Below, piece after piece: positions 22,932-56,154 of a stretch of DNA of 64,000 nt. How positions within the stretch are numbered: the stretch's first letter is position 1; the number at the start of each line of letters is the position of its first letter. Made by a program: the position numbers and the translations under genes. This DNA is from an uncultured delta proteobacterium (GTDB lineage: Bacteria; Desulfobacterota; BSN033; UBA1163): NCBI GenBank assembly GCA_963827685.1, contig CAWHBU010000004.1:480001-544000 (forward strand). The letters run 5' to 3'. The notes beneath the pieces are model-generated. The model searched no databases, was not told the DNA's origin, and saw nothing but the letters and a program-made list of their open reading frames with translations.

Positions 22932-23024
22932 CTTTTTTGGGCTACGGTATCAGGGCTACACTATTCACAGGTAATTGAAACAATAAGAAAAGAAATTTCA
23001 CCTTAATGAGAAAGGAGGTTTCAG

Positions 23025-23315
23025 ATGTCAAAATCTATTCATGACGAAATTGCTTCACGAATTGCTAAAAAATTGGGCACCGAATACAAGGCTCACGAGG
23101 GGATAGACATTGTTAAGGATAAGGTCATTGAAGTGGAAACTAAGAAAAACTCACTTTCTCAAGGCATACGGCAAGTAATTAGATCACAAAAACCAAGGTA
23201 TCTTGCTGTGAATAATCCTAACATTATAAATGCTCTGGAGGTAACAAAAGGGACAGGCGTAGGTGTAATGGGCCCAACAGGGAGAATTATTAAGAGGGCT
23301 TCGAGAAAAGGGTGA
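23025..23315 (+). CDS. Small basic protein, possible minimal PD-(D/E)XK-fold nuclease
   Basis: AAGGAGG RBS; H...GIDIV...IEVETK...QGIRQ pattern. Confidence 0.6.
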   Translation: MSKSIHDEIASRIAKKLGTEYKAHEGIDIVKDKVIEVETKKNSLSQGIRQVIRSQKPRYLAVNNPNIINALEVTKGTGVGVMGPTGRIIKRASRKG

Positions 23316-23395
23316 TTTGGCTTTTGGCGTCATCCATTAGATAGTTGGCCCGGTCAATTGTGGGTTATAATAGCCCTCTTAGATAGGAACAGCGA

Positions 23396-23965
23396 ATGGA
23401 TGGAAGGGGAGATAAGGCAATCTTTGGTCAGCTCCGACAGACACTACCGGGGGTGCGCAAGTGGATCGATGGTTACGTGGAGGCACACGCTCACTTGGCA
23501 GTTCCTGTCGCGGAGCTTGGCTTTGGCAGACTATCACAGTACTTCTATCAAAACCGCCTTGGCACTAGCAAAGCTGTAAAGGTAGATCGTGTGCAGGTTC
23601 CCCCGCTGAGCAAAATGGGAATGCCATACTTCGCCGATTTCGAAGAAACTACGTTTACAGGGATCACTTACATGGACACCTTCTTTCTTGCACCTTCAGT
23701 CCACAGCTGTGAGTCTACTCACTTCCACGAGCTTATCCACGTTGTTCAATGGGACGTATTGGGGCCAGACTTGTTTCTTATGGTTTATGCCGTAGGCCTC
23801 TTGGCACTTGGATATGAAAACTCACCTTTGGAGAGAATGGCTTACGAACTTCAGAGGGAGTTCGAGGCTGGTCACTCCATCCCGCAAGTGGAGTTGCAAG
23901 TCCGAGAAAAGACAGTACTAGTGGCAAAGACTGCAGACATCGGAGAGATCGGTGCCAGGTCTTGA
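23396..23965 (+). CDS. HEXXH zinc-metallopeptidase-like hypothetical protein (DUF4157-like)
   Basis: GITY...FHELIHVVQW...YENSPLERMAY. Confidence 0.7.
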   Translation: MDGRGDKAIFGQLRQTLPGVRKWIDGYVEAHAHLAVPVAELGFGRLSQYFYQNRLGTSKAVKVDRVQVPPLSKMGMPYFADFEETTFTGITYMDTFFLAPSVHSCESTHFHELIHVVQWDVLGPDLFLMVYAVGLLALGYENSPLERMAYELQREFEAGHSIPQVELQVREKTVLVAKTADIGEIGARS

Positions 23966-24025
23966 CGGGCTCCTACTCAAATGGCCCAATTCAAAAATGT
24001 CTGAAAATTTAAGTTTCGATGAATG
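23966..24025 (-). mobile_element. Degenerate IS1182 right-end remnant
   Basis: CGGGCTCCTACTCAAATGGCCCAATTCAAAAATGTCTGAAAATTTAAGTTTCGATGAATG matches the right end of the IS at 45180-46800 and 29913 onward. Confidence 0.7.
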
Positions 24026-24287
24026 GCAATTCAGGGGGGCGTCCAGAAAATTATAAGAATCTTATAAGGGATTTAGGTCATCCGCAAAAAAGCTGGCCCA
24101 CCCAATTGTCGAATGCGGATTGCGGAATGGGGAATTCAAAATATTAGAAACAGCATGGATCAGAGCGCAAAGGGCATGGTGTAAACCTCAAAGTTGAAAG
24201 CTCAAAGTCCTCGTTCACTCATTTTATCTCGCCAGCAGAACAAAAAATCAGTTGACATTGTGATATAAACGGATTATGTGAGGCTTT

Positions 24288-24350
24288 GGGGTCAAAGCTA
24301 CATTATACACTTTGCTTGATACAGAACGAGAGGGCTCTGGGCTTAGAAAT
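24288..24350 (+). repeat. ~63-bp repeat, copy 1 (copy 2 at 38987-39049)
   Basis: 40 identical bases GGGGTCAAAGCTACATTATACACTTTGCTTGATACAGAAC followed by a near-identical tail. Confidence 0.85.
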
Positions 24351-24600
24351 TAAGGTGAGTCGGGTCTCGGGTCGGACCCAGTGAACTGCTTGATCGAATT
24401 AATGAACTATCGGGACGTTCGTGCAGAGCGTGCTTGGAAGTATCAGGAATCACGTGGCATCCATAAAAAAGCTGGCCCATTCGATTGCAGAATGCGGATT
24501 TCGGATTGCGGACTGCGAATGCCGAATTCAAAACTAAAAACAGCATAGCGCATAGCGTCCAGTAGATGTTAGACAGCAATAAAGGTTGAATTTAAGGGAA

Positions 24601-24641: not shown

Positions 24642-24929
24642 ATGGAAAATATGGCTACCGCCCCTAAATTGGTGCGAGTCAGATCAAAGGGTCAACTCAC
24701 CATCCCGCAGGATATGAGAGAGGCCTTAAGTCTTGATGAGAGTACAGGTCTCAATATCTTTCGGGTTGGCAAGGTATTGATTCTATCTCCCAAACGCTTG
24801 CAACGGGCCTCATTGGCTAAGGAAGTAGAGCGAGAAATGAAGCGTCAAGGATTGACCTTGAAAGATCTCATTTCAGATCTACGGGTTCAAAGGGAGAAAT
24901 ACCTTGCGGAAGCCTACTCAGAAGATTAA
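24642..24929 (+). CDS. AbrB/MazE-fold antitoxin
   Basis: VRVRSKGQLTIPQDMREALSL. Confidence 0.88.
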   Translation: MENMATAPKLVRVRSKGQLTIPQDMREALSLDESTGLNIFRVGKVLILSPKRLQRASLAKEVEREMKRQGLTLKDLISDLRVQREKYLAEAYSED

Positions 24930-25359
24930 GGTTTTTATCGACACCAACGTCCTTATTGCTGGAGTCAATTCGGTTACCGGAGCATCAGCAACCATCCTGG
25001 ACTTATGTGAGGCACGAGTTCTGCAGATGGTGGTTAGTCGGCAAGTTTTAATTGAGGCCGACAGAAATTTTGCAGCGAAGTTTCCCCAATTGGTTGGCCG
25101 TTTCCGTCAATTCATGCACAATTTAGCCCCTCTCATGGTTGAGGACCCAACGCCGGAGTCTATGGAAAAGGCGGCCACTATCATTGATCGCAAGGATGCG
25201 CCCATACTGGCTGCGGCAGAGAATGCCAATGTAGATTTTCTAATTACATTAGATAAGAAGCACTTTCTCAATCCAAAAACGAGACAGAAAGTAATGTTGA
25301 AGGTGGTAAGCCCAATAGAATTCCTACAATCCTTTGAGAAATTATTCCTTGAAGAATAA
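24904..25359 (+). CDS. PIN-domain (VapC-like) toxin
   Basis: VFIDTNVLIA, E, DRKDAPILAAA, LITLDKKHFL. Confidence 0.9.
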   Translation: MRKPTQKIKVFIDTNVLIAGVNSVTGASATILDLCEARVLQMVVSRQVLIEADRNFAAKFPQLVGRFRQFMHNLAPLMVEDPTPESMEKAATIIDRKDAPILAAAENANVDFLITLDKKHFLNPKTRQKVMLKVVSPIEFLQSFEKLFLEE

Positions 25360-25414
25360 CTTAGATGTCCGGTGTCATCCATAAAAAAGTTGGCCCATTC
25401 GATTGCAGAATGCG

Positions 25415-25925: not shown

Positions 25926-26474
25926 ATGGAAATGCATGAAGTAATCGCAAAGAGGAGAACAATTCGCATTTTTAAGAAGAAAGCTTCGGAAGAACAGCTC
26001 AAGAAAATTATTCTGGCGGGCACCCAGGCACCCTCAGCCGGAAATTCTCAGCCCTGGGAGTTCATTATTATTGATGATCAAAAGACTATCGATCAAATTG
26101 CGGAACGAAAGTATCAGCTTAGCTTAACGATGCCTCCTCGTGCTGGAGAAGGACAGGATAAAGTTCAAGAGAGGGCGGTCGGTCAGAGGAAATCATTCGA
26201 GAATGCGAGTGCTGTTGCAGTCTGCCATCAGAAAGGGGCGGCGGCAAGTGCCTGGCTTTGCATCGAAAATATGTCTTTGGTTGCGGTTGCCGATGGTTTG
26301 GGAAGTGGGATCGTGGTCTTTTGGGGGGAGCAGGAAAAGGAGGTTAAAAAAATCCTTGGTATTCCAGAAGATTATGAGTTAGCTGCCATTCTGAAGATCG
26401 GGGAACCAGGGGAGAAACCCTCTCTTCCTCCGAAGCGATCCGAATTCAGTTGGTTACACAGAAACAGGTTTTAA
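25926..26474 (+). CDS. Nitroreductase family protein
   Basis: KRRTIRIF, APSAGNSQPWEF, ENMSLVAVADGLGS, LGIPE. Confidence 0.92.
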   Translation: MEMHEVIAKRRTIRIFKKKASEEQLKKIILAGTQAPSAGNSQPWEFIIIDDQKTIDQIAERKYQLSLTMPPRAGEGQDKVQERAVGQRKSFENASAVAVCHQKGAAASAWLCIENMSLVAVADGLGSGIVVFWGEQEKEVKKILGIPEDYELAAILKIGEPGEKPSLPPKRSEFSWLHRNRF

Positions 26475-28057: not shown

Positions 28058-29359
28058 ATGATCACTAAGAAGAATCGGGCTACACCGGATATCATTGTTG
28101 TGGGGGGAGGTGCTGCCGGCATGATGGCAGCGGGGCGCGCAGCGGAGCGGGGCGCGAAAGTAATACTCGTTGAAAAGACACACCGTCTGGGGAACAAATT
28201 GCTCCTGACGGGCGGTGGCCGGTGCAACATCACCAACAAGGCTGGCCTCAAGGAATTCGTTAATGCCTTTGGGAAGAATGGCAGATTTCTCTATCGGGCA
28301 TTCACCGTATTTTCGAACAGCGATTTGATCAATTTCTTCAGTTCCCGTGGACTGGAAATGAGGGTTGATCCTGACGGGAAGGTCTTCCCCGCCGATCATC
28401 GTGCCGAAAGCGTGCTTGCCGTATTGCGTCAATATATAGATGACCACCACGTTCGTATCCTTCACAATACCGTCGTAGCAAAACTTATTTTTCAGTCCGG
28501 AGAAAGCTTACGCGCTGGCGGTGTCAGATGTGCCGACCACAGCGTGTTGGATGCCGGAAAAGTAATTGTTGCCGCGGGCGGCATGTCGTATCCGAAGACC
28601 GGATCTTCCGGCGACGGGTACAAGCTGGCAAGACAATGCGGACATTCCATTGTGCCGCTGAGGCCAGGTCTCGTCGCGCTTGAGTCGGACGAGCCATTTC
28701 TTCAGGAATTGCAGGGGATAACGCTTAAAGACATTTCGCTTTCCGTGTGGGTGGACGGAAAAAAGAAGGTTTCAGAGAAGGGCGACATCCTGTTCACACA
28801 TTTTGGTGTATCAGGCCCAACCGTGCTTATTCTTAGTGGGATCGTTATCGATGCGCTGGCTGCTGGCAGCCCTGTCGCCCTTTCACTGCAATTAAGGCCG
28901 GCTCATACAGTTCAAGAACTTGACCCTATTCTTCAGCGGGAGTTTGAGTCCTGCGGGACCGTCACCCTTTCACAGTATTTGAAAGATGCTCTGCCAAAAT
29001 CGTTCGCGCTGCTCTTTGAACGCCGGTGCGCCGCCGAGCCGGGTAAGCGGTGTAGTAAAATCAGCCGGGAGGAGCGGAAAAGAATCGTCTTATGCCTTAC
29101 AGATTTCAGAATAAATATAACAAAACCGAGGCCCATTGAAGAGGCGACCATCACGCGGGGGGGCGTATCGTTAGAAGAAATAAATCCCCAGACAATGGAG
29201 TCGCGGAGAGTGCATGGTTTATTTTTTTGCGGCGAGATGATTGATGTGGATGGAACGACTGGAGGGTATAACCTGCAGGCTGCATTTTCCACGGGATACC
29301 TCGCCGGAGAATCGGCAGCCGGAGCAGACAAAAAGGGGGCAGGCCGGGTCTTGAATTAA
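28058..29359 (+). CDS. HI0933/YhiN/BaiN-family flavoprotein
   Basis: VGGGAAGMMAA, GNKLLLTGGGRCNITN, GDILFTHFGVSGP, ATITRGGV, TGGYNLQAAFSTG. Confidence 0.93.
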   Translation: MITKKNRATPDIIVVGGGAAGMMAAGRAAERGAKVILVEKTHRLGNKLLLTGGGRCNITNKAGLKEFVNAFGKNGRFLYRAFTVFSNSDLINFFSSRGLEMRVDPDGKVFPADHRAESVLAVLRQYIDDHHVRILHNTVVAKLIFQSGESLRAGGVRCADHSVLDAGKVIVAAGGMSYPKTGSSGDGYKLARQCGHSIVPLRPGLVALESDEPFLQELQGITLKDISLSVWVDGKKKVSEKGDILFTHFGVSGPTVLILSGIVIDALAAGSPVALSLQLRPAHTVQELDPILQREFESCGTVTLSQYLKDALPKSFALLFERRCAAEPGKRCSKISREERKRIVLCLTDFRINITKPRPIEEATITRGGVSLEEINPQTMESRRVHGLFFCGEMIDVDGTTGGYNLQAAFSTGYLAGESAAGADKKGAGRVLN

Positions 29360-29872: not shown

Positions 29873-29912
29873 TCAACAGAAAGTACAAATAGGATACGGG
29901 GCCGGGTCTTGA

Positions 29913-30224
29913 CGGCCTGTTGCTCAAAAGCCCAATTCAAAAATATCTGAAAATTTAAGTTTCGATGAATGATAGCCGGGGGTAAATAGAACCAAATAGC
30001 ACCATTTGGCCAATTTTAAAGCTCATCAGCTCCTTAAAATCTGAAAAAGACCTTATCTCCCTTGTCACAGCCCCTTTGATCTGCTCCATCATTACCGATG
30101 GACTTCTCTTTAGGTAAGATCCATACCTCAGCAAAACCTCAATGTTCTGGACAGCAGAGATCAGGTATTCCTGTATCTGCACCCGCCAAAGCCCTCTCCA
30201 TCGTGCCCGGTCATATCCATACCG
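29913..30224 (-). mobile_element. IS1182 remnant (3' end of the transposase plus right IR)
   Basis: Near-identical to about 46489-46800 (RYGYDRARWRGLWRVQIQEYLISAVQNIEVLL). Confidence 0.9.
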
Positions 30225-30524
30225 GACTTGCGGCGAGACTGGGACGTAGTTGAAAATTAACACTTTTCCCCCTTCTGCATTACATTTGTGAGTGGGTATC
30301 ATCCATAAAAAGGTTGGCCCTGCAAACAAGAGATCGCAAAGAGCATGGCGCATAGAGCATAGCGCATCACAGACATTTATATGAGGAGATAAGGAGATAG
30401 TATAATAATAGATTGCGGATTGTGGAATGCAAATTGTAAAAACGAATTTCAAAGTCATTGGGACATTTGGGATATTCCATAAGTAAGTCCTGGTAGAACT
30501 CCGAAGACAACTTAAAAATTGCGA

Positions 30525-30846: not shown

Positions 30847-31677
30847 CTAATGTAAATTTAATATCTTTCTCGCTTCCGCGGGAGTTGCAATTTCCCTTCC
30901 GAATTCACGAGCGATTATTTTTGCTTTCTCAACAAAATCAACGTTTGATTTGGCCAGCACTCCCTTCGAGAGATAAATATTGTCTTCCATACCTACTCTA
31001 ATATGGCCGCCGGTAATTACAGTCATGTACATTATTGTAAGATACGCCGCTCCTATCCCGAACGCGGAGAATGTTGAACCAGCAGGCAGCTGGCTTTTTA
31101 AATGCATAAAATTTTCTATGGTTGCCGTCATACCGCCTGGCGCGCCAAGGCAAAGCTGAAAGTGGAGGGGCGCTTTAATAAAATCTCTGCTGTAATAATA
31201 CAGCGAATTGTAAAGCATTCCTGTATCAAATATTTCCAGCTCAGGCTTAATATTATTTTCAATTGCAAGCTTACCCAAATTTTCAAGAAACACCGGTGGA
31301 TTAAGAAAAACAGTTGTATTCATCCAATTCATCGATCCCGCGTCATAAGAACACATCTCTGGTTTTAAATTTATTAGTTGTTTTGTTCTGTCTTCAAAGG
31401 TAAGGTTTGGATCCACAGACCCTGATGTTGTCAAATTAAGGACTATATCGCAGTCTTTTTTTGCTCTGATCAGGTTGACCGTCTCTTTAAAAGTTTCATA
31501 TTTCATCGAAGGCGCTTCATCTTCCCCTCTTACGTGTATATGTGCTATGGCAGCTCCCGCCTTCCAGCACGCATAAACCTCTTCTGCTATTTCTTTCGGC
31601 TTTGTGGGCACATATGGAGTATTTTGTTTCTTAGGCCATGCTCCGGTAGGAGCTACAGTAATTATACATTTGTTCAT
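30847..31677 (-). CDS. Beta-keto acid cleavage enzyme (BKACE / DUF849, Kce-like)
   Basis: IITVAPTGA, AGAAIAHIHVR, KPELEIFD, GGHIRVGMEDN, ATPAEARKIL. Confidence 0.93.
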   Translation of the reverse strand: MNKCIITVAPTGAWPKKQNTPYVPTKPKEIAEEVYACWKAGAAIAHIHVRGEDEAPSMKYETFKETVNLIRAKKDCDIVLNLTTSGSVDPNLTFEDRTKQLINLKPEMCSYDAGSMNWMNTTVFLNPPVFLENLGKLAIENNIKPELEIFDTGMLYNSLYYYSRDFIKAPLHFQLCLGAPGGMTATIENFMHLKSQLPAGSTFSAFGIGAAYLTIMYMTVITGGHIRVGMEDNIYLSKGVLAKSNVDFVEKAKIIAREFGREIATPAEARKILNLH

Positions 31678-32368
31678 GGAAATCCTCCTCAGAAAAAACT
31701 TTCAATTGATAAAAATTCGTTTAATGAAGCATTATAGTCCGATCATTTCGAAGATTATTTCATGGATCTTGGTCATGGTCTTATTTGAGAAGCCAAGGTT
31801 TGAATACTGTATTGGGAGGTTGACGCCCAGCTGGTCCAGAAAATTATCCCATAAATCAATCCATACCCTCTTTTGACAAACTCCACCGCTTTCTATCCGA
31901 CAAATCGGGGCAAACAAATACCTGGCCGCGGCACCAGAAATAATGAAAAAAGACTCACCAATTCGGCTGACAGAAACGTAAGGACGCCTGTAATTATATC
32001 CTCTAAGATCACATCCACTCTGCGGCTCCTTTAGCTGCATATAGGTTGAGCCCCGTTGGAGGGGTAATGAGATCTATCTCACACGATAATCAATAATTAT
32101 ATTTGGCTACTATAAATGAGAAGATCTCAATCAGTTGCCAGAAATCTGCTCCGACAACTTCTTCAAAAATCCCACGATCTTAACGGCCACAGAAGATAAT
32201 ATCCTCCAGTTCGCCACGCAAACCCTTCAAAGCAAAACCTAGTATTCATAAAGAGAAGAAACATATAGTGCCCATTCAGCAGAAACTATCTAAATTCACC
32301 TAAGAATTTTCAATCAATTCCTGATTATGAAAAAAGTGTTTTCAGTTTTTGAAGAGAAAAACATACTT

Positions 32369-32408
32369 TAAGGCATCCCGGAAGCTACTAGGAACCCGGG
32401 ATGCCTTA
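32369..32408 (-). terminator. Hairpin downstream of the ABC substrate-binding gene
   Basis: TAAGGCATCCCGG-loop-CCGGGATGCCTTA. Confidence 0.6.
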
Positions 32409-32447
32409 AAAACATTGATTAACATCTAATCATTTTCCCATACCCGT

Positions 32448-33665
32448 TTATTTCATCTTGCATCCTGTTTCCTCACAGGGTACTTCTACAGACTTTGCGG
32501 TAGTCATGCCAGCAGGTGCTTCGAAAGCATGGTTGAAATATTTTGTCTTTTTAACAATTTCAGTATACCATAACGGGACCTGTGCCTGGTGATCACAAGC
32601 ACGCATCGTCCAAACACCAGCTGGACCGTCATAGGAAAGGCCTTCCCATGCTTTGATGACAGCCGCTACATCCATTGTTCCGGCTTTTTTGACCGCCTCA
32701 GCCCAGAACATCGTAGATAAATAAGCTTTTCCACGCAGCCATGTCGGATAGTATCCCTTCTCTTTAAAGAACTTAGCTACGAATTCCTCATTCTTTTTCG
32801 TGGGAATGGAAAGAGTGTAAACTTCGGCACCCATGTTGCCAATCATAATTTCGTCGTCGCCCAGTGCCTGAATTGTGAATTCATCATTGATATAGTAAGA
32901 GAACACTATCTGTTTCATCCCCATGGGACGCCCCTGTTTTAGGAGTATGGTCAAGTCATTGCCCCAGTTCGGCGTGAAGATAGCATCCGGTGTTGCCGCA
33001 ATGATCTGACTGATATAGGGGGCGTAATCCTTTGTTCCGGCAGGATGGTAAAGCTCGGCCACGATTTTCGCGGAAGGGTTGACTTGGGCAAATTTCTTTT
33101 TAAATGCTGACAACGCCTCGTACCCAAAGGAATAATCCTGGGCGATGATAGCGACCTTCTTGTAGCCTTTCCTCGCTATCAGCTCGGCCAACGCATAGGA
33201 ATGCTGGTCAGTATTGGCGCATGTTCGGAAGAAGTTTTTGCTACACTTTGCGCCGGTCATACTCGCGGCCGCCATTCCATAGCTAATCATGATTACATTC
33301 TGTTTTTCTGCAAGCTGTTCCATAGCAGCGCCAACAGAACTTCCCGTACCGCCGCAGAAAAACTTTACGCCATCTTTCAAAATCAGGTTTTGAGCTTTAC
33401 GAGTTGCCACATCCGGTTTCAATTCAGAATCGATCGGGATAACTTCGACTTTGTTGCCGAGCAGTCCTCCTTTTTCATTAATAACTTTTGCCCCATAGAC
33501 CACGCCATCCAGATAACGGTCGCCGATATCTTTGAAAGTTCCCGAGAGAGGCTCCGTCGCTCCGATTTTAATGGTGTCCTTAGCTGGTGCATAATCGGGC
33601 AGCACCACCATCAAGGCCAAAAATAATACACCTAAACCTAAACCAAACACAAAAATTTTTTTCAT
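32448..33665 (-). CDS. HAAT (branched-chain amino acid type) ABC substrate-binding protein
   Basis: Signal peptide MKKIFVFG, IKIGATEPLSG, INEKGGLLG, DYSFG; AAGGAGG RBS. Confidence 0.9.
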   Translation of the reverse strand: MKKIFVFGLGLGVLFLALMVVLPDYAPAKDTIKIGATEPLSGTFKDIGDRYLDGVVYGAKVINEKGGLLGNKVEVIPIDSELKPDVATRKAQNLILKDGVKFFCGGTGSSVGAAMEQLAEKQNVIMISYGMAAASMTGAKCSKNFFRTCANTDQHSYALAELIARKGYKKVAIIAQDYSFGYEALSAFKKKFAQVNPSAKIVAELYHPAGTKDYAPYISQIIAATPDAIFTPNWGNDLTILLKQGRPMGMKQIVFSYYINDEFTIQALGDDEIMIGNMGAEVYTLSIPTKKNEEFVAKFFKEKGYYPTWLRGKAYLSTMFWAEAVKKAGTMDVAAVIKAWEGLSYDGPAGVWTMRACDHQAQVPLWYTEIVKKTKYFNHAFEAPAGMTTAKSVEVPCEETGCKMK

Positions 33666-33699
33666 AAATGCCTCCTTTCTTCTTTTGTTAGTTAAATTT

Positions 33700-34416
33700 T
33701 TAAACCTCCAAGTAATTCTTCCGCGCATCTTCTGCTGCCAGGAGAGCTTCTGGATCCCCTGCAAAAACCATTTGCCCCTTGCTCATGATATAAAAACGAT
33801 CTGCAATTTTGATGGCCGCCTTGAAATTTTGTTCCACCATAAGGACGGTTATACCTGATTTTCGAACTGCTACCAGCATATCCAACACGTCTTTTACCAA
33901 TAAAGGAGCAAGGCCTTCCGTCGGTTCGTCTACAAGAATAAGGCGAGGATTTCCCATCAGTGTTCTTACTACAGTTAGTATCTGTTGCTCTCCACCTGAA
34001 AGATGACCACCCTTGCTGTTTGCTCTTTCCTTAAGACTGGGAAAAAGATCATAAACCCTGTCGATTGTCCAAGCCCACTCTCCTAAATTCTCCTTATTCT
34101 TTTGTCTGATTCCTATCAGAAGATTTTCATGTACTGTAAGGCTTCGAAAAATGCGCCGTTCTTCGGGAACATAGCCAACACCAAGATTGGCAATTTCAAA
34201 GGGCTCTCTGCCGATTAATTCCTGACCGTGGAATCGAATGCTACCTTGTTTCGGCTGGACAACACCAATGATACTTTTTAACGTAGTCGATTTGCCAACG
34301 CCATTTCTTCCAAGAAGACAGACCAACTCTCCCTCTTTTAAACACAAAGAAACACCCTGGAGAATATGACTCTTTCCATAATAACTATGAATATCATTTA
34401 CTTCTAACATGGTCAT
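33700..34416 (-). CDS. livF: ABC ATPase, LivF-like
   Basis: GRNGVGKST, LSGGEQQ, DEPTEGLAP. Confidence 0.9.
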   Translation of the reverse strand: MTMLEVNDIHSYYGKSHILQGVSLCLKEGELVCLLGRNGVGKSTTLKSIIGVVQPKQGSIRFHGQELIGREPFEIANLGVGYVPEERRIFRSLTVHENLLIGIRQKNKENLGEWAWTIDRVYDLFPSLKERANSKGGHLSGGEQQILTVVRTLMGNPRLILVDEPTEGLAPLLVKDVLDMLVAVRKSGITVLMVEQNFKAAIKIADRFYIMSKGQMVFAGDPEALLAAEDARKNYLEV

Positions 34417-35156
34417 CCTTCCCCTAGATAAGCGTCTTTTACACTCTGATCAAGCCTGATTTTCTCGGGTATGTCAGACATAAGGATGGTACCATAATGA
34501 AGAACGGAAATAGTATTGGCAAGTGAAAATACCACTTCCATATCATGCTCGATAATAATCAGCGTGCGACCGGCCGTCACTTTATCAATCATCTTGATTG
34601 CCTTATCTGTTTCCTCGCGCGTCATACCAGCGGTAGGTTCATCAAGAAGAATCAATTCTGGTTCAGTGGAAAGGGTCATGCCGATTTCCAAGGCTCTTTG
34701 CTGTCCGTAAGACAAGGAACTGGCTGCTTGGTCCTTGACACTCATCAGACCAACTTCAGCAACAATTTCTTCTGTTTTTTCAATTATGTCCCGATCAGAA
34801 GCAGGCTTTTTAAAAAAATGATACCGCAGACCAAGCCGGGAACGCGTTCCGGAGAGGATGTTTTCAAATACACTCAATTCTTGGAAAACATTCGTGATTT
34901 GGAAGGATCGGGAGATGCCATATCGGTTCAAGACGTGAGGGGGTTTCCCAGTTATATCCTGTCCCTTGAAAAGAATAGCCCCGGAAGATGGTTTGAATTT
35001 ACCGCTGATAATATTGAAAAGAGTTGTCTTTCCTGCTCCGTTGGGACCGATGATGGCATGATGTTCTTTCTCTTTGGCACTGAAGTCAACACCTGTCAGA
35101 ATCTCTAAGCCCGAAAAGTCCTTGTAAATATCCTGGACATGCAGGTAATCGCTCAT
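34413..35156 (-). CDS. livG: ABC ATPase, LivG-like
   Basis: GPNGAGKTT, LSYGQQR, LDEPTAG, IEHDM. Confidence 0.9.
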   Translation of the reverse strand: MSDYLHVQDIYKDFSGLEILTGVDFSAKEKEHHAIIGPNGAGKTTLFNIISGKFKPSSGAILFKGQDITGKPPHVLNRYGISRSFQITNVFQELSVFENILSGTRSRLGLRYHFFKKPASDRDIIEKTEEIVAEVGLMSVKDQAASSLSYGQQRALEIGMTLSTEPELILLDEPTAGMTREETDKAIKMIDKVTAGRTLIIIEHDMEVVFSLANTISVLHYGTILMSDIPEKIRLDQSVKDAYLGEG

Positions 35157-36154
35157 GATATTAATCCCTCTGCCGCGGCGGATCTGGCGCCATTATTGTT
35201 CTTTTTCCCAAAAAACCGCTGCCGCATATTCGTAATGACCTCGGACAAGCCGCCAGGGATGAACAGCACCATGAGGACAAAGATGAATCCCATGAAGAGC
35301 GGCCAGCGATCCGTAATATTACTCAGATAGTTCTGGAGAATAATATAGACAAAGGCGCCCAGGATAGGCCCCCAGAATGTTTTCGTTCCTCCGACAAAGG
35401 TCATAAGTAGTACCGCTGTTGTCATATCGATACTGATCGCCGAAACGGAAACAAACTGGAAATGGAGCGTATAAAAGCTGCCGGCAAGTCCCGCCACCGC
35501 TCCGGTAAAAGTAAAAAGAATAAGGCGGCTGATGTTTGTGTTGTAACCAAGGAATTTCATCCGTTCCTCGTTTTCGCGCATAAGCAGAACAGTTCTGCCC
35601 ATAGCTGTATGCGTAAAATACCAGCAAAAAGTGATCGAAGCTCCGACAATAATCAGAGTTAAGTAATAAAAGTGCGTCAGGCTGCCCATGGAAATGGAAG
35701 TAAACCACAGATTGAGATCCGGTCTCGTAATGCTGAGGCCGTCGTCACCGCCAGTGACGGAATGCCATTTTGTAGCCAAGGCATAAAAAAGTGCATTGAA
35801 GGCCAGCGTCAGCAGGGCAAAATATGCTCCCTTGTGCCGCAGAAGAAGACTGCCGATGATAAAACCTGAGATAATGGTTGTTACGATTCCTATCAATATA
35901 GCATTCCACAGGGCTAGTCCCGGAATATGAATAATCGCCACGGCTGTTATGAAGGCGCCAAGACCGAAAAACATGGCATGACCGAAGGACAGAAGCCCCG
36001 CGTAACCGAGAAGAAGATTATAGCTGATAGCATAAAGAGAGAAGATGATAATTTCTGTCAACATGTTCAGATAATATTGTTTCATGATAGCAGGCATAAA
36101 AGCTCCTGCCGCGAATAATGCTATAATGATGAAAGAAGTACTTTTCTGTTTCAT
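35153..36154 (-). CDS. livM: ABC permease, LivM-like
   Basis: LLGYAGLLSFGHA, YFALLTLAF, GPILGA. Confidence 0.9.
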   Translation of the reverse strand: MKQKSTSFIIIALFAAGAFMPAIMKQYYLNMLTEIIIFSLYAISYNLLLGYAGLLSFGHAMFFGLGAFITAVAIIHIPGLALWNAILIGIVTTIISGFIIGSLLLRHKGAYFALLTLAFNALFYALATKWHSVTGGDDGLSITRPDLNLWFTSISMGSLTHFYYLTLIIVGASITFCWYFTHTAMGRTVLLMRENEERMKFLGYNTNISRLILFTFTGAVAGLAGSFYTLHFQFVSVSAISIDMTTAVLLMTFVGGTKTFWGPILGAFVYIILQNYLSNITDRWPLFMGFIFVLMVLFIPGGLSEVITNMRQRFFGKKNNNGARSAAAEGLIS

Positions 36155-37017: not shown

Positions 37018-37069
37018 TTGTTTATCCCTTGATATTGAGAGGTCTATATTCCCCTTTAGGTGTTATTTT

Positions 37070-38029: not shown

Positions 38030-38045
38030 TATACTACAACCTCCC

Positions 38046-41944: not shown

Positions 41945-42197
41945 TCTTTCTTCCGTCTCGGGTCTTCTGTGGATAGAATGAATTAGTGTCATCCATAAAA
42001 AAGTTGGGCCTATCAATTGCGGATTTCGGATTGCTGATTGCGAAATGTGGAATTTAAAAACTTCGAGAAGAAGTATCTTCCCATGTAGATCGCGGATTAG
42101 ACGCGAGTCGGATCGGTAGCCTCTTGATTTTGGTAAATCTTTGGGCCTGACTGGCTGGCTGTGTGCGCTCCCGAGCGCGCAACATGAAAAGATATCT

Positions 42198-42327
42198 ACC
42201 CCGTTAGAAATAATGCCCCGCTGTTTCGCAGTCGCGCCTGTGGCGGAATTACATTCTAGAATAATTCCGGAGGGATCTAATGCCCCGCTCGGCTTCGAGT
42301 CGTAACGACTGGAATTTCTAACGGGGT
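42198..42327. mobile_element. 130-bp ACCCCGTTAGAAA...TTTCTAACGGGGT palindromic element
   Basis: 14-bp terminal IR; internal direct repeat TAATGCCCCGCT twice. Confidence 0.8.
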
Positions 42328-42731
42328 GAACCTCTCCGGGAAGCACAAATTTTCAGGCGCTTCCATTTTTCAGTCCAGAACTCCAACCTTTCTGAATGGC
42401 CTGAGGATGCTTCATCATTCTACGGGGGATGGAAAAGCAGCCTGCTCCCAACTTCTTGAAGCTTGTCAATTATCTCCCTTTTGTATCATAATTCTATCAG
42501 AAGGGCGTTCTCGGCGTTGTTTGGAATGGATTGGAAGGTTATTATGGCCATTAATGATCGAATTGACATCCACCCTAATGGCTGTATTTGTTTTTTATTT
42601 GACGGATATCGAGATCAAGAATTTGAAAAAAGTGTTCAGGGAAAGCAGGACCGACAGGATTAAAGCACATCAGAAGGGTTATTGATAAATATTTAGAAAA
42701 ATCCAAAGAGAATGAAAGGGGAGGAGAAGAG

Positions 42732-43490: not shown

Positions 43491-43842
43491 CAAATGGCTC
43501 GGCCTTTTTTGTGCGAATTTTAGAGGGCTTCGTAGAAGGCTTCGCGGTCAGGTCTTGCAATATTACATCTATGAGTGGTTGTCATCCATAAAAAAGTTGA
43601 CCATTCCAAATTCGGAATGCTGATTGCGGAATGCGGAATTTATGCTGAGTGGCGATTTCAGATTGCAAATTCCGGATTGCAGATTGAAGTGCTGCATTGC
43701 GGATTGCGGAATGCGGATTTAATGAAGAAACAATTGAATGGGTGATTGGGTAAATCGTTGAGTCGTAGAGTTAATGAGTCGTTGAGTAGTAGTTGACGGA
43801 ATGAGGTGAGGTTCGTTTGGGAGACAATTTGGAGTTAAAGCA

Positions 43843-45126: not shown

Positions 45127-45179
45127 CGTATCAAATTCTGATGATTGTGTTATTGAGAAAAACAGGTATCCATTCTTAA

Positions 45180-46800
45180 CGGGCTGTTGCCCAAATGATG
45201 CTTGCAACGATTATACATTCGAGCTATAAGCATGGCAAGACAAATCAGGAATGGAGATTTTGCCATGATGGGACAACAGACAGGAATTCAGCCGAAGATC
45301 TTCTATCATCATATGAACCTGGAACAAAGGATTCCCCGGACACACCTTCTGAGAAGGATTCAAGAGCAGATTGACTTTAACTTCATCTATGCAGAGGTCA
45401 GAGACACCTATGGGGGCAACGGGAATGTGTCCATTCCCCCTCCTGTAATCCTGAAGATGATGTTGCTGTTAGTTCTTTACAATGTTCGATCGGAACGAGA
45501 GTTAATGGAAACGATCCCCATGCGTTTAGACTGGCTATGGTTTTTAGGGTACGACATAGACAGTGAGGTGCCGGATCACAGTGTTTTGAGTAAAGCCAGG
45601 GCGCGGTGGGGAGTGGAAGCGTTTAGGGGATTTTTTGAGCGAATGGTGTGGCAATGTGTGGAGGCGGGGTTAGTGGACGGCAGAAAGATCTTTGTGGATT
45701 CGAGCTTGGTGGATGCGGATGCATCGAACAACTCCGTGATCGACACGCGATCGTTGAAGGTTCAACTCCAGGAGGGCTACAAGAAGCTGGAAGCACGATT
45801 AGAGGAAAAGAGCGAGAGCACGGATTCCTCCAGGAGATACGTTAAAGAGAACAGCCGATACATTTCAACGACCGATCCGGATGCATCGATAGTGAATCGT
45901 GGCAAGCCCAAACTCTCCTATCAGGTTCATCGGGCAGTGGATGAGCGGAGTGAAGTGATCACGGCGATCGAAACGACAACAGGAGATGTCAATGAAGCGC
46001 ATGAGATGATTCCTCTGATAGAGAGCCACCATTTAAATACAGGGGTCAAGGCGGATACGGTGGTGGCCGACAGCAAATACGGGACGATCGAGAACTTTTT
46101 GGCGTGTCATGATAGAGGGGTAGAGGCTCACATGCCGGATTTGAGGGAAATCTCATTGAAGCGTACAGAAAAGCAGAATATCTTTGGGGAAGAGCGGTTT
46201 GAGTATGATCGGGAGAGTGACACCTATCTTTGTCCAGCTGGGCATCGGTTGAAGCCTAGGTCATTACATATGAGTCGGCAAAGTAGAGATTACGCTGCGC
46301 CCAAGAAGATTTGTGCGGTATGTGACTTAAGAGAGCAGTGTACTAGAAACAGATCAGGTCGGACAATTAAGCGACATCTGAGGCAGGAAGATCTAGACAG
46401 GATGCGAGAGGCGAGTCGATCGGCCAAAGCGAAGCGGGATATCAAAGTGAGGCAGCATTTGATGGAGCGTTCCTATGCCAGAGGGACGCGGTATGGATAT
46501 GACCGGGCACGATGGAGAGGGCTTTGGCGGGTGCAGATACAGGAATACCTGATCTCTGCTGTCCAGAACATTGAGGTTTTGCTGAGGTATGGATCTTACC
46601 TAAAGAGAAGTCCATCGGTAATGATGGAGCAGATCAAAGGGGCTGTGACAAGGGAGATAAGGTCTTTTTCAGATTTTAAGGAGCTGATGAGCTTTAAAAT
46701 TGGCCGAATGGTGCTATTTGGTTTTACTTACCCTCGGCTATCATTCATGGAAACTCAAACTGTCAGATATTTTTGAATTGGGCTTTTGAGCAACAGCCCG
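45180..46800 (+). mobile_element. Complete IS1182-family element with TTAA direct repeat
   Basis: IRs CGGGCTGTTGCCCAAA / TTTGAGCAACAGCCCG, flanked by TTAA at 45176-79 and 46801-04. Confidence 0.88.
45265..46776 (+). CDS. IS1182-family DDE transposase
   Basis: DUF772-type N-terminus (SERELM, PDHSVLSKAR), VDSSLVDA, STTDPDA, VADSKYG, YLCPAG, CAVCDLREQCT. Confidence 0.92.
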   Translation: MMGQQTGIQPKIFYHHMNLEQRIPRTHLLRRIQEQIDFNFIYAEVRDTYGGNGNVSIPPPVILKMMLLLVLYNVRSERELMETIPMRLDWLWFLGYDIDSEVPDHSVLSKARARWGVEAFRGFFERMVWQCVEAGLVDGRKIFVDSSLVDADASNNSVIDTRSLKVQLQEGYKKLEARLEEKSESTDSSRRYVKENSRYISTTDPDASIVNRGKPKLSYQVHRAVDERSEVITAIETTTGDVNEAHEMIPLIESHHLNTGVKADTVVADSKYGTIENFLACHDRGVEAHMPDLREISLKRTEKQNIFGEERFEYDRESDTYLCPAGHRLKPRSLHMSRQSRDYAAPKKICAVCDLREQCTRNRSGRTIKRHLRQEDLDRMREASRSAKAKRDIKVRQHLMERSYARGTRYGYDRARWRGLWRVQIQEYLISAVQNIEVLLRYGSYLKRSPSVMMEQIKGAVTREIRSFSDFKELMSFKIGRMVLFGFTYPRLSFMETQTVRYF

Positions 46801-47074
46801 TTAACATGAGACACGGGAAAAACGGTGCCCTCCACAAAAACTTAGCCCGCTCAAATGCGCGCATAGCGAAGAGCGCAAGGCGCATCGCGTACAGAACATT
46901 ATTCAAGAATCAAACCGCACGGCGCATGGCGCAAAGCGGGCAGAAGGGAGATTGGGAATCAAAGCACCATTTCATAAGACCAACACCATGATGGATGAAG
47001 GTGCGTATTTGATGAGAGGGTGGATGAATGCACTTAAATCACATCGATGATTTATTAAAAGAAAGGAGGATGTT

Positions 47075-53547: not shown

Positions 53548-53606
53548 CAGAAGGTTTCTTATGCAACTGGCGGGTTTATATTCTGTTTAAGGTGAGGGTT
53601 CATTCG

Positions 53607-53750
53607 ATGGCTTCATCGTGCGAGGAATATCGTTACCAGCAGCAGCTGCTTGCCTTAAAGAAACGTTTGGCTGAGGATAAGCTGATCCCGGAAGAACGGG
53701 AAGAGATCGAGAGGCTGGTTCAGGAGCTGGAAAGAAAATTGAAAATGTGA
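53607..53750 (+). CDS. Small helical protein (47 aa)
   Basis: MASSCEEYRYQQQLLALKKRLAEDKLIPEEREEIERLVQELERKLKM*; AAGGTGAGG upstream. Confidence 0.6.
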   Translation: MASSCEEYRYQQQLLALKKRLAEDKLIPEEREEIERLVQELERKLKM

Positions 53751-53785
53751 ACGTGTAACAGTGACAGAGAAGAACAGGATTCTCG

Positions 53786-54997
53786 ATGACGATGAAAGGT
53801 GTTAGAAAGGGTTTTCCCGTCGCATTCCTTTTTCTGACTGTGGCGATGGCTGTCAGTTGCTATCCTGTACTGAAAAAAGAGGCACAGCAGCCGGAGGAAG
53901 CTCTCAGGCAGGTCCGCTTCCTTTCTCCCGAGTTCCGCGATGACATGGATCGTGACTCCTTGATGCTGGCCGTCAGAAGAAACATGGAATACCTGGGTCG
54001 CCTCGGTCCTGAGACAGTATTTCACTACGGGCCAGACGATTTTACCGTCCAACAGGTGCGTGAGAGCCAAGAGACTTTCCTGGATCTCGTGGCAAAAGGA
54101 CTTGATCCAGATCATCTGAGCAGAGAGATCAGGGAGAAGTTTCGGGTTTACCGGGCTACGGGTCGGGTTGGAGACAGAAGGGTACTCTTCACAGGGTATT
54201 ATGAGCCCATTTATGAAGGAAGCCTGGCTTCTGATGAGGTCTTCAAGTATCCGCTGTATCGTTCGCCTGACGATCTGATAAGAATTGACCTGTCTCTCTT
54301 CAGTGAGAAGTTCAAGGGAGAGAACATCGTCGCGAGAATCGAAGGCAAGAAGGTCCTGCCTTACTACTCCAGGTACCAGATTGAGGCAGAAAGGGTGCTG
54401 GAGGGAAAGGGTCTTGAGATCGCGTGGCTAAAAGACCCGTTGGATGTGACTTTTCTCCACATCCAGGGATCGGGCAGGCTGAGGCTCCCCGACGGAAAGG
54501 AACTCTTGGTTCACTACCAGGCCTCCAATGGCCGACCCTACCGGAGCATCGGGCGGTATATGATCGAGAAGGGGTTTCTTGCGCGTGAAGAGATGTCCAT
54601 GCAAGCGATGAGGAGATACTTGACCGAGAACCCGGAGATCCTCGATGAGGTTCTGAATTATAATCCCTCGTACGTGTTCTTTCGGCAGGTGGAGGACGGC
54701 CCTTTAGGCAGTCTCGGTGTCCTCCTGACCCCGGGAAGGTCGGTTGCCTTAGATTCCAGGATTTTCCCAAAGGGAGCCCTCGGGTTCATCGTGTGCCACA
54801 AACCCCTTATGAATGACCGGGGAGAGATCATTGGGTGGAATAAATTCTATCGTTTTGTCATAAATCAAGACACGGGTGGGGCGATCAAAGGGGCTGGAAG
54901 AGCAGATATCTTCTGGGGAAGCGGCTCCTACGCCGAGTTGACGGCAGGGCACTTGCGGCATGAGGGGGACCTGTACATTTTGATCAAGGAGCCTTAA
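53786..54997 (+). CDS. mltA: Membrane-bound lytic murein transglycosylase A
   Basis: Lipobox AVSC, FTGYYEP, LHIQGSG, NPSYVFF, QDTGGAIKG..RADIFWG. Confidence 0.93.
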   Translation: MTMKGVRKGFPVAFLFLTVAMAVSCYPVLKKEAQQPEEALRQVRFLSPEFRDDMDRDSLMLAVRRNMEYLGRLGPETVFHYGPDDFTVQQVRESQETFLDLVAKGLDPDHLSREIREKFRVYRATGRVGDRRVLFTGYYEPIYEGSLASDEVFKYPLYRSPDDLIRIDLSLFSEKFKGENIVARIEGKKVLPYYSRYQIEAERVLEGKGLEIAWLKDPLDVTFLHIQGSGRLRLPDGKELLVHYQASNGRPYRSIGRYMIEKGFLAREEMSMQAMRRYLTENPEILDEVLNYNPSYVFFRQVEDGPLGSLGVLLTPGRSVALDSRIFPKGALGFIVCHKPLMNDRGEIIGWNKFYRFVINQDTGGAIKGAGRADIFWGSGSYAELTAGHLRHEGDLYILIKEP

Positions 54998-55182
54998 GCG
55001 AGAAAGGATTCAGGGTCAAAGCTAAAGAATAAACTTTGAACGTTTGGAAAGGCCAGTTAGCTACAGGAAGAGCTGAGGTGTCATCCATAAAAAAGTTGGT
55101 CAGTGGTTCAGGGGCCAGGCATTGGTAATCAGGTATTAGTCTAAGAATCGGTCAACGGTGATCTGATTTTCGGGGTAGGTTG

Positions 55183-55959
55183 ATGAAAGACATTTATGAA
55201 GAGATGATGGTTGCCTCTCGAGTGATTGCCGCCTCTTTTCCTCAACCCAGCTTTTATGTTTGCTGCAGAGAGCCGCTTGACCTGTCTCGCTCCCTTTTTG
55301 ATGAGGACGCACAGGTTATGAAATGCCGCACCCTCGTCCTCAACGAGCTAAAGGAGGACCTCGGCCATGGAATCGATCACTGTGAAAAGGTGGCCTTGGA
55401 AGCCGGGGCCTTGGCTTATATCGAAGGGGGGAGGCTTTGCCTGGAGGAATCTTTGAGGCGCGAAGCTTGCCTCCTGGCCCAGATCGCCGGCCTCCTGCAT
55501 GACCTGCGGCGTAATGAAAAAGAGCACGCCAAGGCGAGCGCCTCTGCGGCCTCGAGAATGTTACAGGAGTTCTCCGTCTTCCCTAAAAAAGGAGAATACA
55601 TCGTGCAGGCCATTGCTAACCACGAGGCCTTCGTTGAGCCAAAGAGAGTTCGTTCACCTGTGGGCCAGATGATCAGCGATGCGCTCTACGATGCTGATAA
55701 ATTCCGCTGGGGCCCGGACAATTTTACCCAGACCCTGTGGCGAATGCTCCGCTCCTCAAGGGCGCGCATCGCGCCCCTGATTCGCAGGTTTCCGAAGGGA
55801 ATGGAAGGAATCTCTGGGATCAAAGAGACCTTCCGCACGGAGACGGGGAAGATCTATGGACCGGAGTTCATCGAGTTGGGGCTTAAGATCGGGGGGGAAA
55901 TCTACCTGTTTCTCGAAGAAAGATTCTCTGACGAACTGCAGCAAGAGAAGACAGAATGA
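55183..55959 (+). CDS. HD-domain phosphohydrolase
   Basis: GHGIDH, GLLHDL, AIANHEAF, LYDADKFRWG. Confidence 0.85.
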   Translation: MKDIYEEMMVASRVIAASFPQPSFYVCCREPLDLSRSLFDEDAQVMKCRTLVLNELKEDLGHGIDHCEKVALEAGALAYIEGGRLCLEESLRREACLLAQIAGLLHDLRRNEKEHAKASASAASRMLQEFSVFPKKGEYIVQAIANHEAFVEPKRVRSPVGQMISDALYDADKFRWGPDNFTQTLWRMLRSSRARIAPLIRRFPKGMEGISGIKETFRTETGKIYGPEFIELGLKIGGEIYLFLEERFSDELQQEKTE

Positions 55960-56154
55960 GAATTCTTTGGTGGCCTCCAACGCATGGAGCCGCCGGGGCA
56001 AAGGCTACGGTCAGATTTGGGAAATTGAGGTTTGTTGCCAGCTATAAAAAAGTTGGCCGTTTCTAAATGCCAATTTCGGATTGCGCCTGCCCTGTACCCT
56101 GTTAGGTTCGGGGCCTGCGGCAGGAAGACATATTCTAAACTCCTCGCTTTCCAA

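Follow-up and report, generated by a model that had tools for sequence, protein, structure and literature searches.

Arrays of exchangeable gene cassettes bounded by a co-oriented ~25-bp motif in a family of Syntrophales-like Thermodesulfobacteriota

To our knowledge, no machinery other than the integron is well understood among those that store single genes in arrays and rearrange them, and integrons are detected through their integrase and hairpin attC sites. The locus analyzed here raises the question of how genes are swapped between arrays and between species at a place where neither hallmark is found. It lies in a 64,000-nucleotide stretch, referred to as the window, of contig C4 (CAWHBU010000004.1) in the genome of an uncultured delta proteobacterium of sediment (GCA_963827685.1, here G000). 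Positions 23.3-56.1 kb of the window hold a cassette array, in which functionally unrelated single genes or small operons are separated by a short, uniformly oriented motif. The genome has four such arrays, and the type was encountered in a single family of Syntrophales-like Thermodesulfobacteriota. An earlier note, made from the letters of the window, had proposed an integron-like array delimited by a hairpin and possibly driven by an HUH enzyme. The motif arrays indeed work like an integron, yet they lack the features by which membership in that class is recognized. Several models for the gene swapping were compared, and a dedicated enzyme acting on the motif is tentatively favored.

The junction motif and its four arrays

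Genes of the array are separated by a conserved asymmetric motif of ~25 bp with the consensus GGTGTCATCCATAAAAAAGTTGGCC, which over 228 unique copies reads GGTG TCATCCATAAAAAAGTTGGCC. These copies were retrieved through motif positions 4-25, so that part of the conservation there reflects the selection; no such constraint applied to positions 1-3 or from 26 on. A profile was built from the 228 copies, and the whole genome was scanned with it using nhmmer. The window yielded 11 matches at E ≤ 0.01, and relaxing the threshold to 0.1 and to 10 raised the number to 13 and 15, every one on the + strand and within 23325-56063, and a repeat finder returned 13 direct copies of a 23-nt core. The 26-mer given in the earlier note occurred seven times at three or fewer mismatches, on the + strand only, and never in 100 shuffles, which confirms that the repeat is real. 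The restriction to one strand was thereby borne out; the count of about 17 copies was somewhat high, and a possible fragment suspected near 7066 had no profile match, there or elsewhere in the flanks, at E ≤ 10. The copies in the window, with one example of the spacer that follows them, are:

23325-23353, + strand: motif copy, variant CATTAGATAG (E 0.0032), 10 nt past the stop of open reading frame (ORF) 23025-23315
24075-24100, + strand: motif copy (nhmmer E 0.006), preceded by repeated module 'a'
24454-24481, + strand: motif copy (nhmmer E 1.3e-5); TGCGGA heptamers come next and the MazE-PIN cassette after them
24484-24559, + strand: example of a post-motif spacer, composed of (WTGCGGA)n, an A/T-rich stretch and (GCATAGC)n
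25370-25399, + strand: consensus motif copy, 11 nt past the PIN stop and the exact start of a unit duplicated on contig C5 at 98% identity
27489-27505, + strand: partial motif copy, left half (nhmmer E 0.032; repeat finder)
30294-30323, + strand: motif copy (nhmmer, 26-mer match); the minus-strand BKACE/Liv block is next
39158-39187, + strand: motif copy, variant ATAAGAAAG (nhmmer, repeat finder), preceded by modules a, c and b
39626-39649, + strand: degenerate motif copy (nhmmer E 0.09) after ORF 39316-39603
41064-41087, + strand: motif copy (nhmmer E 1.1e-5)
41985-42013, + strand: consensus motif copy, 40 nt past the YtfJ stop; its counterpart is decayed where YtfJ is followed by gene B, an order shared by six relatives
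43578-43606, + strand: motif copy (nhmmer, 26-mer match)
55077-55101, + strand: motif copy after MltA (nhmmer, 26-mer match)
56036-56063, + strand: last motif copy of the array (nhmmer E 0.0018)

Genome-wide, 43 of 46 copies were intergenic, and the distance from the upstream same-strand stop to the motif had a median of 112 nt, compared with 336 nt for random points (12 of the 46 lay within 60 nt). Six copies of the window had been described as following stop codons closely. When compared with ORF ends, those at 23326, 25371 and 41985 were good cases and the other three were poor: 39621/39626 is a weak match (nhmmer E 0.09), 40507 is 74% like the reference and is missed by nhmmer, and 52434 is the right half of the motif alone (E 5.6). 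TGCGGA-type heptamers, likewise said to follow the motif, do so after most window copies (18 WTGCGGA tracts) but after only 35 of the 228 copies in the wider family. On the other side, recurrent non-coding modules were seen upstream of many motif copies (window 38980-39158 and 24028-24100), namely 'a' (GGGGTCAAAGCTACATTATACACTTTGCTTGATA...TTATAAGAATCTTAAAAGGGATTTAG), 'b' (GGGGCCAGGTCTTGCAATCACACATTTCATAAAACAAGAGAGG) and 'c' (GGGACGTAGTTGAAAATT...), and the heptamer GGGGTCA stood upstream in 37 of the 228 contexts and downstream in 5.

The genome is a metagenome bin of 14 contigs with 94.5% completeness. Of its 43 profile matches (E ≤ 0.01), 36 fell into four stretches with a total length of 63.5 kb, or 1.2% of the genome, and the orientation of the copies was uniform within each of them:

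C1, 261-266 kb, + strand: motif array, 5 copies
C4, 503-536 kb, + strand: motif array of the window, 11 copies
C5, 55-70 kb, - strand: motif array, 12 copies
C7, 180-190.5 kb, - strand: motif array, 8 copies

The motif is thus clustered rather than spread evenly through the genome, the latter being the pattern that the earlier note had associated with ordinary repeats. The stretches were delimited by the copies themselves; the clustering is therefore not an independent test and is given no probability. As an internal control, a dispersed palindromic repeat, GCCTGCCTGC, placed 5 of its 147 copies inside the four stretches. This repeat (core GCCTGCCTGC...GGCAGG; in the window at 7977, 25414 and 27878), whose 147 copies on 9 contigs compare with ~10 expected by chance, is often inserted in heptamer tracts, and behaves as an ordinary repetitive extragenic palindromic (REP) sequence or miniature inverted-repeat transposable element (MITE). 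No Y1 gene flanked by it was found.

Similar arrays occur in relatives. In G010, a genome of two contigs, a 30-kb array had 19 of 19 motif matches on the + strand, and G011 contained co-oriented motif runs on several contigs (e.g. C52, C96, C91 and C108). An 18-mer of the motif, with at most one mismatch, was detected in 12 of 14 congeneric genomes, in 17 of 24 at the level of the family and in none of 16 from elsewhere; G001 and G014 are the congeners in which a search for the consensus gave no match. An exact 20-mer was met in 85 stretches, of which 80 are listed, from ~30 species-level genomes among species representatives, and nearly all of these stretches were labeled Thermodesulfobacteriota, delta proteobacterium, Syntrophales, Syntrophaceae or Syntrophorhabdus. 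Six of the 80 listed loci bore other labels (L017, L020, L039, L044, L049 and L079). Since L017, L044 and L049 have cassettes or flanks in common with other loci, they are probably binning errors. L020 shares cassette sequence with the window, and L039, from a gammaproteobacterial metagenome-assembled genome, has nothing else in common and fits the approximately one chance 20-mer match expected in the collection. A search of viral contigs for a phage origin gave no match to the 20-mer.

Exchange of cassettes at the motif

That the array consists of exchangeable gene cassettes bounded by the co-oriented motif, as had been proposed, was upheld by cross-genome matches, by a comparison of motif flanks and by the single orientation of the copies. 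The genes concerned, with the chromosomal anchor to their left, are:

8134-11204, + strand: conserved left anchor, RecD2-like helicase and PD-(D/E)XK nuclease
11205-22931, no strand: strain-specific island between anchor and array, without motif copies
24642-25359, + strand: MazE-like antitoxin and PIN toxin cassette (Pfam), 89-92% nucleotide identity in six other genomes
25926-26474, + strand: nitroreductase cassette (Pfam), second copy in the C5 array
28058-29359, + strand: HI0933/YhiN-like flavoprotein cassette, 92-95% identical in three relatives
30847-38633, - strand: 8-kb block between two motif copies, with BKACE, a Liv-type ABC transporter, 3-hydroxyacyl-CoA dehydrogenase and an XRE-cupin regulator
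41408-41944, + strand: YtfJ-family cassette, in arrays of many relatives; near full-length intI in G011 and G013
45172-46802, + strand: insertion sequence (IS) inside the array, DUF772 and DDE_Tnp_1_6 transposase, ~15 genome copies

A 20-kb piece of the array matched 39 of 41 relatives, in gene-sized pieces only, at 80-97% identity and on unrelated contigs; for the 8-kb Liv block, the relatives matched at 69-75% only. Gene order between motif copies was mostly not conserved, as opposed to the shared order that the earlier note would have expected of REPs inserted after stop codons. The MazE-PIN cassette was located in seven different neighborhoods in seven genomes, and in most of them the motif or a degenerate form of it lay 10-60 nt past the stop. 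The nitroreductase unit was duplicated in the C5 array at 98%, with identity beginning exactly at the motif. A nine-copy array of G011 carried genes found in three different arrays of G000. Four genes were syntenic between this array and the C7 array, with motif copies at the same junctions, where the homology stops at the motif and the hypervariable post-motif spacers differ (124 vs 338 nt at one orthologous junction). Turnover was also evident at a fixed chromosomal position. In G000, G010, G011 and G007 alike, a motif array is found on the downstream side of the recD2 anchor, starting 35 kb past the anchor genes in G010 and within ~1 kb of recD2 in G011 and G007, and the hotspot arrays of G010 and G000 have almost no genes in common, YhiN being the one shared gene identified. 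Four public runs were consulted as assembled Logan contigs, in which uncovered parts are not evidence. Two of them, X3 and X5, covered the cassettes of 38.8-45 kb with almost no contigs on the adjoining operon; the part of the Liv-block operon at 36.0-38.8 kb had low depth in 2 of 7 bins of X3 and 1 of 7 of X5.

The position of the exchange was delimited by comparing the 228 unique motif contexts pairwise, with flanks taken as alike at ≥80% and unlike at <50%. In the 12 pairs alike upstream only, similarity held through motif position 25 and fell to 0.25 at position 26. In the 38 pairs alike downstream only, many of which share spacer modules and not genes, it stayed at background up to position 0 and was 0.8-0.95 from position 26. 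Motif positions 1-4 travel with the upstream unit. Inside the motif the upstream-alike and downstream-alike sets are indistinguishable, which places the exchange point within ~25 bp. A further observation concerns a junction that was inherited rather than exchanged. YtfJ is followed by gene B in six congeners (G004, G005, G006, G009, G010 and G012, by BLAST coordinates), and at this junction in the five that were inspected, all but G012, the motif was progressively degenerate, from GTCGTGTCCATAAAAGAGTCGGCC to GGTTAGGTCTGTAGAGGAACTGCC. The consensus form is kept in G000 and G011, whose YtfJ genes have another downstream neighbor. Decay at an inherited junction speaks against a regulatory function for the host and favors a site that exchange itself keeps renewing.

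The cargo is functionally unrelated, and its earlier annotation was confirmed by Pfam. Besides the cassettes listed above, it includes TPR, PF0610-like zinc ribbon, HTH, B12-binding radical SAM, cupin, MaoC, MltA and HD proteins, together with two minus-strand blocks, one with BKACE, the Liv transporter and 3-hydroxyacyl-CoA dehydrogenase and the other with HD-GYP and HEAT-repeat proteins; eight small array ORFs belong to no family in Pfam or NCBIfam. The IS at 45172-46802 has terminal repeats ACGGGCTGTTGCCCAAA. Three of its copies lie within motif arrays. Five of six inspected copies adjoin a GGNNCAGGTCTTG-like box, in one orientation or the other, so that the element probably has target specificity for this box. 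A truncated 5' part of it occupies window 29898-30224, positions 23950-23996 are cited under the same IS, and its empty site (45175/46801) was present in contigs of runs X2, X3 and X5. This IS was considered among the candidate recombinases and rejected, its termini being unlike the motif. At window 42147-42378, a short repeat reached a public-run depth of up to 840 (X5), compared with 20-130 nearby, and 84-87-nt presence/absence variants were seen at 42219-42310; it is probably a small mobile palindromic element.

The island at 11205-22931 encodes a Dam methylase, a HerA-like DUF87 ATPase, an HNH protein, an IrrE/ImmA peptidase, a cyclic-oligonucleotide-based antiphage signaling system (CBASS)-type CD-NTase (21211-22194) followed by a SEC-C-motif protein, and a gene that we take from its sequence to be HicB-like; nothing beyond short repeats matched it in 14 congeners. 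A 188-nt imperfect palindrome (AGTGAACGCC...GGCGTTCACT, 7910-8097) lies outside the array in the GC-rich stretch before recD2 and was flagged by a crude attC scan. Two tRNA genes (60035-60107 on the - strand and 60260-60345 on the + strand), 4 kb to the right of the array, are unlike the motif by eye.

Hairpin, regulatory and integron explanations

The proposed hairpin did not survive folding. As single-stranded DNA, the 35-nt motif unit folded at -0.1 kcal/mol on the + strand and -0.5 kcal/mol on the - strand, no better than shuffles, and no compensatory change in the proposed stem was found among the 228 unique copies, in which one side changes and the partner stays. Four whole spacers and four motif units including their upstream boxes, folded on both strands, gave z-scores of -2.1 to +1.9, mostly near 0, the lowest belonging to a single spacer. 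Rfam searches (gathering threshold and E ≤ 1) returned nothing at the motif; the only matches were to a pair of tRNAs beyond the array and, by chance, to S15. Terminator-like and promoter-like sites were as numerous as in shuffles. The repeat is a sequence motif and not a hairpin.

These results bear directly on the suggestion that a single-stranded hairpin is recognized by a Y1 or REP-associated tyrosine transposase (RAYT) enzyme that captures genes. It could draw on the G-rich strand, which is the motif strand in four of four arrays, and on the 25 Y1_Tnp matches in the genome, 21 of them IS200-type and four weaker. Yet the motif neither folds nor shows compensatory pairs, and all 25 Y1 genes are located outside the arrays, the C1 array having one of them 1.6 kb past its end. 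The search for a Y1/RAYT gene flanked by the motif also failed: the IS200-type elements end in GC-rich hairpins, CCGCCCAGCTCTGCTGGGCGG and CCCCGCAGCTCTGCTGCGGGG, unrelated to it, and the four weaker genes are motif-free within 500 nt. The hairpin-and-HUH model is largely refuted and now barely credible. The IS200-type Y1 genes occupy 21 places (e.g. C4:636157-636519), 18 with equal score and three slightly shorter at 139 bits.

It is also very improbable that the motif is a cis-element of the host acting in RNA or DNA (an insulator, a signal for 3' ends or a regulator site of accessory genes), with its place at cassette borders as a by-product. Such a role would suit the mostly intergenic copies close to upstream stops, one stem pair that is G-T and possible on the + strand only, and the heptamers with GGA every 7 nt after many window copies. 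Against this, the orientation tracks the array and not the local gene, copies 30294 and 39158 bracketing minus-strand genes, and the motif decays at a conserved junction. Neither a fold, nor covariation, nor an Rfam match even at E ≤ 1, nor an excess of terminator-like or promoter-like sites over shuffles accompanies it, and exchange points inside the motif would be left unexplained.

The absence of IntI and of canonical attC sites from the array, as stated in the earlier note, was confirmed by a TIGR02249 search, folding and attC scans. An attC site consists of imperfect inverted repeats with R''/L'' and L'/R' boxes (RYYYAAC ... GTTRRRY) and folds single-stranded; clusters of attC sites lacking integron-integrases (CALIN), a term of IntegronFinder, have at least two attC covariance-model matches and no integrase nearby. 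No integron integrase was found beside any of the four arrays. The sole intI trace in G000 was a C-terminal fragment of 141 aa at C3:782919-783275 (locus L001), with 191 bits to TIGR02249 (cut-off 265) over model positions 197-315. From the translations, we take its neighbors to be ligA, a Phd/ParE-like pair and rarA, and the ORF in place of its 5' half to be TPR-like. The loci of the intI fragments in G000 and G010 share 59 nt only, so no argument is drawn from shared ancestry.

Full-length IntI above the curated cut-off was present in 12 of 41 relatives, whose classical integrons carry attI (...AATTGTT) on the 5' side of intI and cassettes with GC-rich GCCTAAC...GTTAGGC attC sites from which the motif is absent. 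Unlike in these relatives, attI and an array 5' of intI were not seen in G000. Loci L124 (G013:C108, 16180-18672), L123, L131 and L133 are such classical integrons. The GTT of attI is the very end of several contigs, as would be expected if the variable cassette junction interrupts the assembly. In a home-made and crude attC scan with DNA energy parameters, the sites of relatives (L124 and L130) folded at -0.28 to -0.30 kcal/mol per nt, and the G000 array gave weak candidates only, mostly inside ORFs, at -0.09 to -0.15 kcal/mol per nt; the scan missed one canonical control site and is thus of limited sensitivity, and two stricter scans found nothing even in controls. A pattern scan detected no canonical attC sites in arrays anywhere in the genome. 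The array does consist of co-oriented, individually mobile cassettes, as integrons do, but it is not a canonical integron and, going by these proxy scans, probably not a CALIN.

An indirect relation to integrons was also weighed, in which the IntI of the lineage acts on a non-canonical site, an A/T-rich stretch followed by GTTGGCC that resembles the GTTRRRY core and the attI of relatives, and the G000 arrays are CALIN-like orphans left after the decay of intI. The intI fragment on C3, the full-length IntI of the 12 relatives, the cassette sizes and toxin-antitoxin content like those of chromosomal integrons, and the retention of GTT in 217 and 214 of the 228 copies, although these were chosen by core similarity, are all compatible with it. 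In G011, moreover, the nine-copy motif array shares a contig with a full-length intI. This array, however, lies 5.6 kb past the 3' end of intI and is convergent with it, whereas the classical arrays of relatives start at attI 5' of intI and have motif-free attC sites. The motif is without an inverse core site, and it forms no hairpin as stable as that of attC. Nor do the motif and IntI co-occur more than expected: IntI above the cut-off was found in 4 of 16 genomes with at least two motif copies and in 8 of 25 without, and 11 of 14 fetched IntI loci were free of the motif. A relation of this kind is therefore regarded as improbable.

Dedicated enzyme, portable repeats and known systems

Co-orientation, one site per junction, exchange inside the site, and its renewal and decay point to directional, conservative recombination of whole modules at the motif. 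Judged from these sequence patterns, the explanation that we favor, with somewhat less than even confidence, is that a dedicated enzyme acts in trans and recombines the motif as a double-stranded DNA site. A module carrying one motif copy would be joined to the array, or cut from it, at a resident copy. Campbell-type integration and excision would leave direct repeats, the very outcome to be expected when a single-site circle recombines with a copy already in the array. The enzyme would be encoded elsewhere in the genome and would be neither an integron integrase nor an HUH protein. We infer from the arrays that the exchange is site-specific and enzyme-driven and passes through circular intermediates.

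Several observations weigh against such an enzyme. No recombinase was common to the flanks of the four arrays, none recurred among 451 ORFs at 80 motif loci, and none was present among 10 selected ORFs of an 80-kb G010 region; the transposases seen at motif loci belonged to ordinary IS only. The motif has no dyad symmetry by eye, and the core sites of tyrosine and serine recombinases usually have it. Circular cassettes were looked for as terminal overlaps in 21 whole short contigs, and none had any. Joints in public contigs that 'skip' or 'go back' fall in heptamer or motif repeats, with short sides and 90% likeness; they are ambiguous, may come from other organisms, and are not counted as excision events. 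The pairs of the flank comparison (12 and 38) are not independent events, and the estimated contamination of the bin is 8%. Other short modules are exchange points as well, which fits general homologous recombination. In G011 (contig C52), the spacer that precedes the nitroreductase in G000 stands ahead of YhiN. A 1.4-kb insertion at a singleton motif is bordered not by the motif but by two copies of a ~75-nt module, of which G009 has one. A singleton 311-nt non-coding insertion between two conserved genes is flanked by an 8-nt direct repeat, and its empty site was seen in five congeners; it holds the motif, purine-rich repeats and a TTGACA-N17-TATTAT promoter-like site, and is unique as a whole.

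Three groups of genes were noted in the course of the enzyme search. Stand-alone tyrosine recombinases of ~200 aa, devoid of an N-terminal core-binding domain, are encoded at C4:172551-173159, C6:132834-133427 and C2:692526-693122 and are paralogues with 81-84% nucleotide identity. This small type was tried as the motif enzyme and rejected, because it is present in 3 of 41 related genomes and does not track the motif. Identical tandem tyrosine-recombinase elements (frames of 394 and 297 aa), reminiscent of recombinase-in-trio elements, are located at C1:55903-57550, C2:701291-702938 and C4:735131-736778, and the motif copies C4:726249 and C4:729104 lie 6-9 kb from one of them. XerC/D-like genes are present in the genome.

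RecA-type exchange at portable repeats is a serious rival, and one that we consider possible rather than probable. Here, the motif and its accompanying modules (heptamers and GGGGYCAGG boxes) would be intergenic repeats of the lineage that pile up in dispensable islands, exchange would follow gene transfer, and the mosaicism would arise by homologous or short-homology recombination with no dedicated enzyme. This accounts for the failure to find a linked recombinase, for the several repeat kinds that act as exchange points and for the variation of spacers by slippage, as at the junction with 124 and 338 nt. It also agrees with the synteny that persists in places (YtfJ, gene B and gene D stand in the same order in six genomes), and Campbell-type or double-crossover homologous exchange would give direct repeats and co-orientation too. 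What it does not readily explain is that the motif sets a sharp limit to the exchange points both upstream and downstream, and that the truly dispersed GCCTGCCTGC repeat of the same genome behaves differently; moreover, 25 bp is at the lower limit for RecA-dependent exchange. Furthermore, the exact 20-mer is kept across the ~30 species-level genomes while intergenic DNA and idle copies of the motif decay, which calls for a drive that portable repeats do not supply. In its full form, the dedicated-enzyme model would amount to a second, integron-independent gene-capture system in one Syntrophales family, with a ~25-bp double-stranded non-palindromic site, an unlinked recombinase, arrays at fixed hotspots (one past recD2), and sites that are renewed by mobilization and decay when idle; this wider claim is put forward as a doubtful but worthwhile possibility.

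Among known systems, sedentary chromosomal integrons are alike in their long arrays of mostly single-gene cassettes of ~0.4 to 2.8 kb, in the abundance of toxin-antitoxin pairs and genes of unknown function, in having one co-oriented site per junction, and in the turnover of content between species at a conserved locus with cassettes common to genomes. They differ in that the motif arrays have no integrase or attI, that the motif is an unstructured sequence of ~25 bp and attC a structured imperfect palindrome of 57-141 nt, that the ORFs here are each preceded by a long repeat-rich spacer, and that the true integrons of relatives, which have ordinary attC sites, occur alongside the motif arrays and are free of the motif. 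With CALIN, the arrays share the missing neighboring integrase and the broken intI of the genome, but no attC-like hairpins were found in them by our proxy scans, CALIN being defined by the covariance model. REP sequences, or bacterial interspersed mosaic elements (BIMEs), with their RAYT resemble the motif as short, lineage-specific, intergenic and strand-biased repeats that often follow stops; the motif, however, is not palindromic, marks the borders of exchangeable genes, has no cognate RAYT, and numbers 43 copies, 36 of them in four arrays, compared with hundreds of dispersed copies for REP/BIME. As regards MITEs, the motif copies are all co-oriented and no inverted partner was seen; the 311-nt insertion has its 8-nt direct repeat.

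Three further systems build or replace gene modules outside the integron family. The pdif modules of Acinetobacter plasmids are Xer-dependent, with two inverted 11-bp arms, a 6-bp spacer and alternating orientation. They are similar in having gene modules that include toxin-antitoxin systems, a site of ~28 bp and, as proposed here for the motif, an unlinked recombinase supplied by the host, and dissimilar in that the motif is strictly co-oriented and has no inverted arms by eye. Recombinase-associated acquired interbacterial defense (rAID) arrays of Bacteroidales consist of orphan immunity genes with a tyrosine recombinase at one end; they too are integron-like arrays of small genes with conserved intergenic repeats, but no such terminal recombinase was found at the motif arrays. 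In the minimal mobile elements of Neisseria, cassettes are replaced by homologous recombination at conserved borders without a mobility gene. The borders there are whole conserved genes and here are 25-bp motifs repeated many times in tandem arrays, and these elements serve as the model for exchange at portable repeats. Among the papers listed by full-text literature searches, none on arrays of this type in Syntrophales or Desulfobacterota was encountered.

The motif arrays would escape integron searches if the attC model does not score the motif, as our proxies suggest. Should a distinct enzyme act on the motif, it would constitute a new site-specific recombination system and a new route of gene flow in syntrophic methane-cycle bacteria of sediment and peat. 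Should there be no such enzyme, the arrays would reveal the extent to which an integron can be imitated by short portable repeats on their own, which would bear on the origins of integrons. Either way, the motif makes it possible to catalogue, from metagenomes, the flexible genes of this uncultured lineage.

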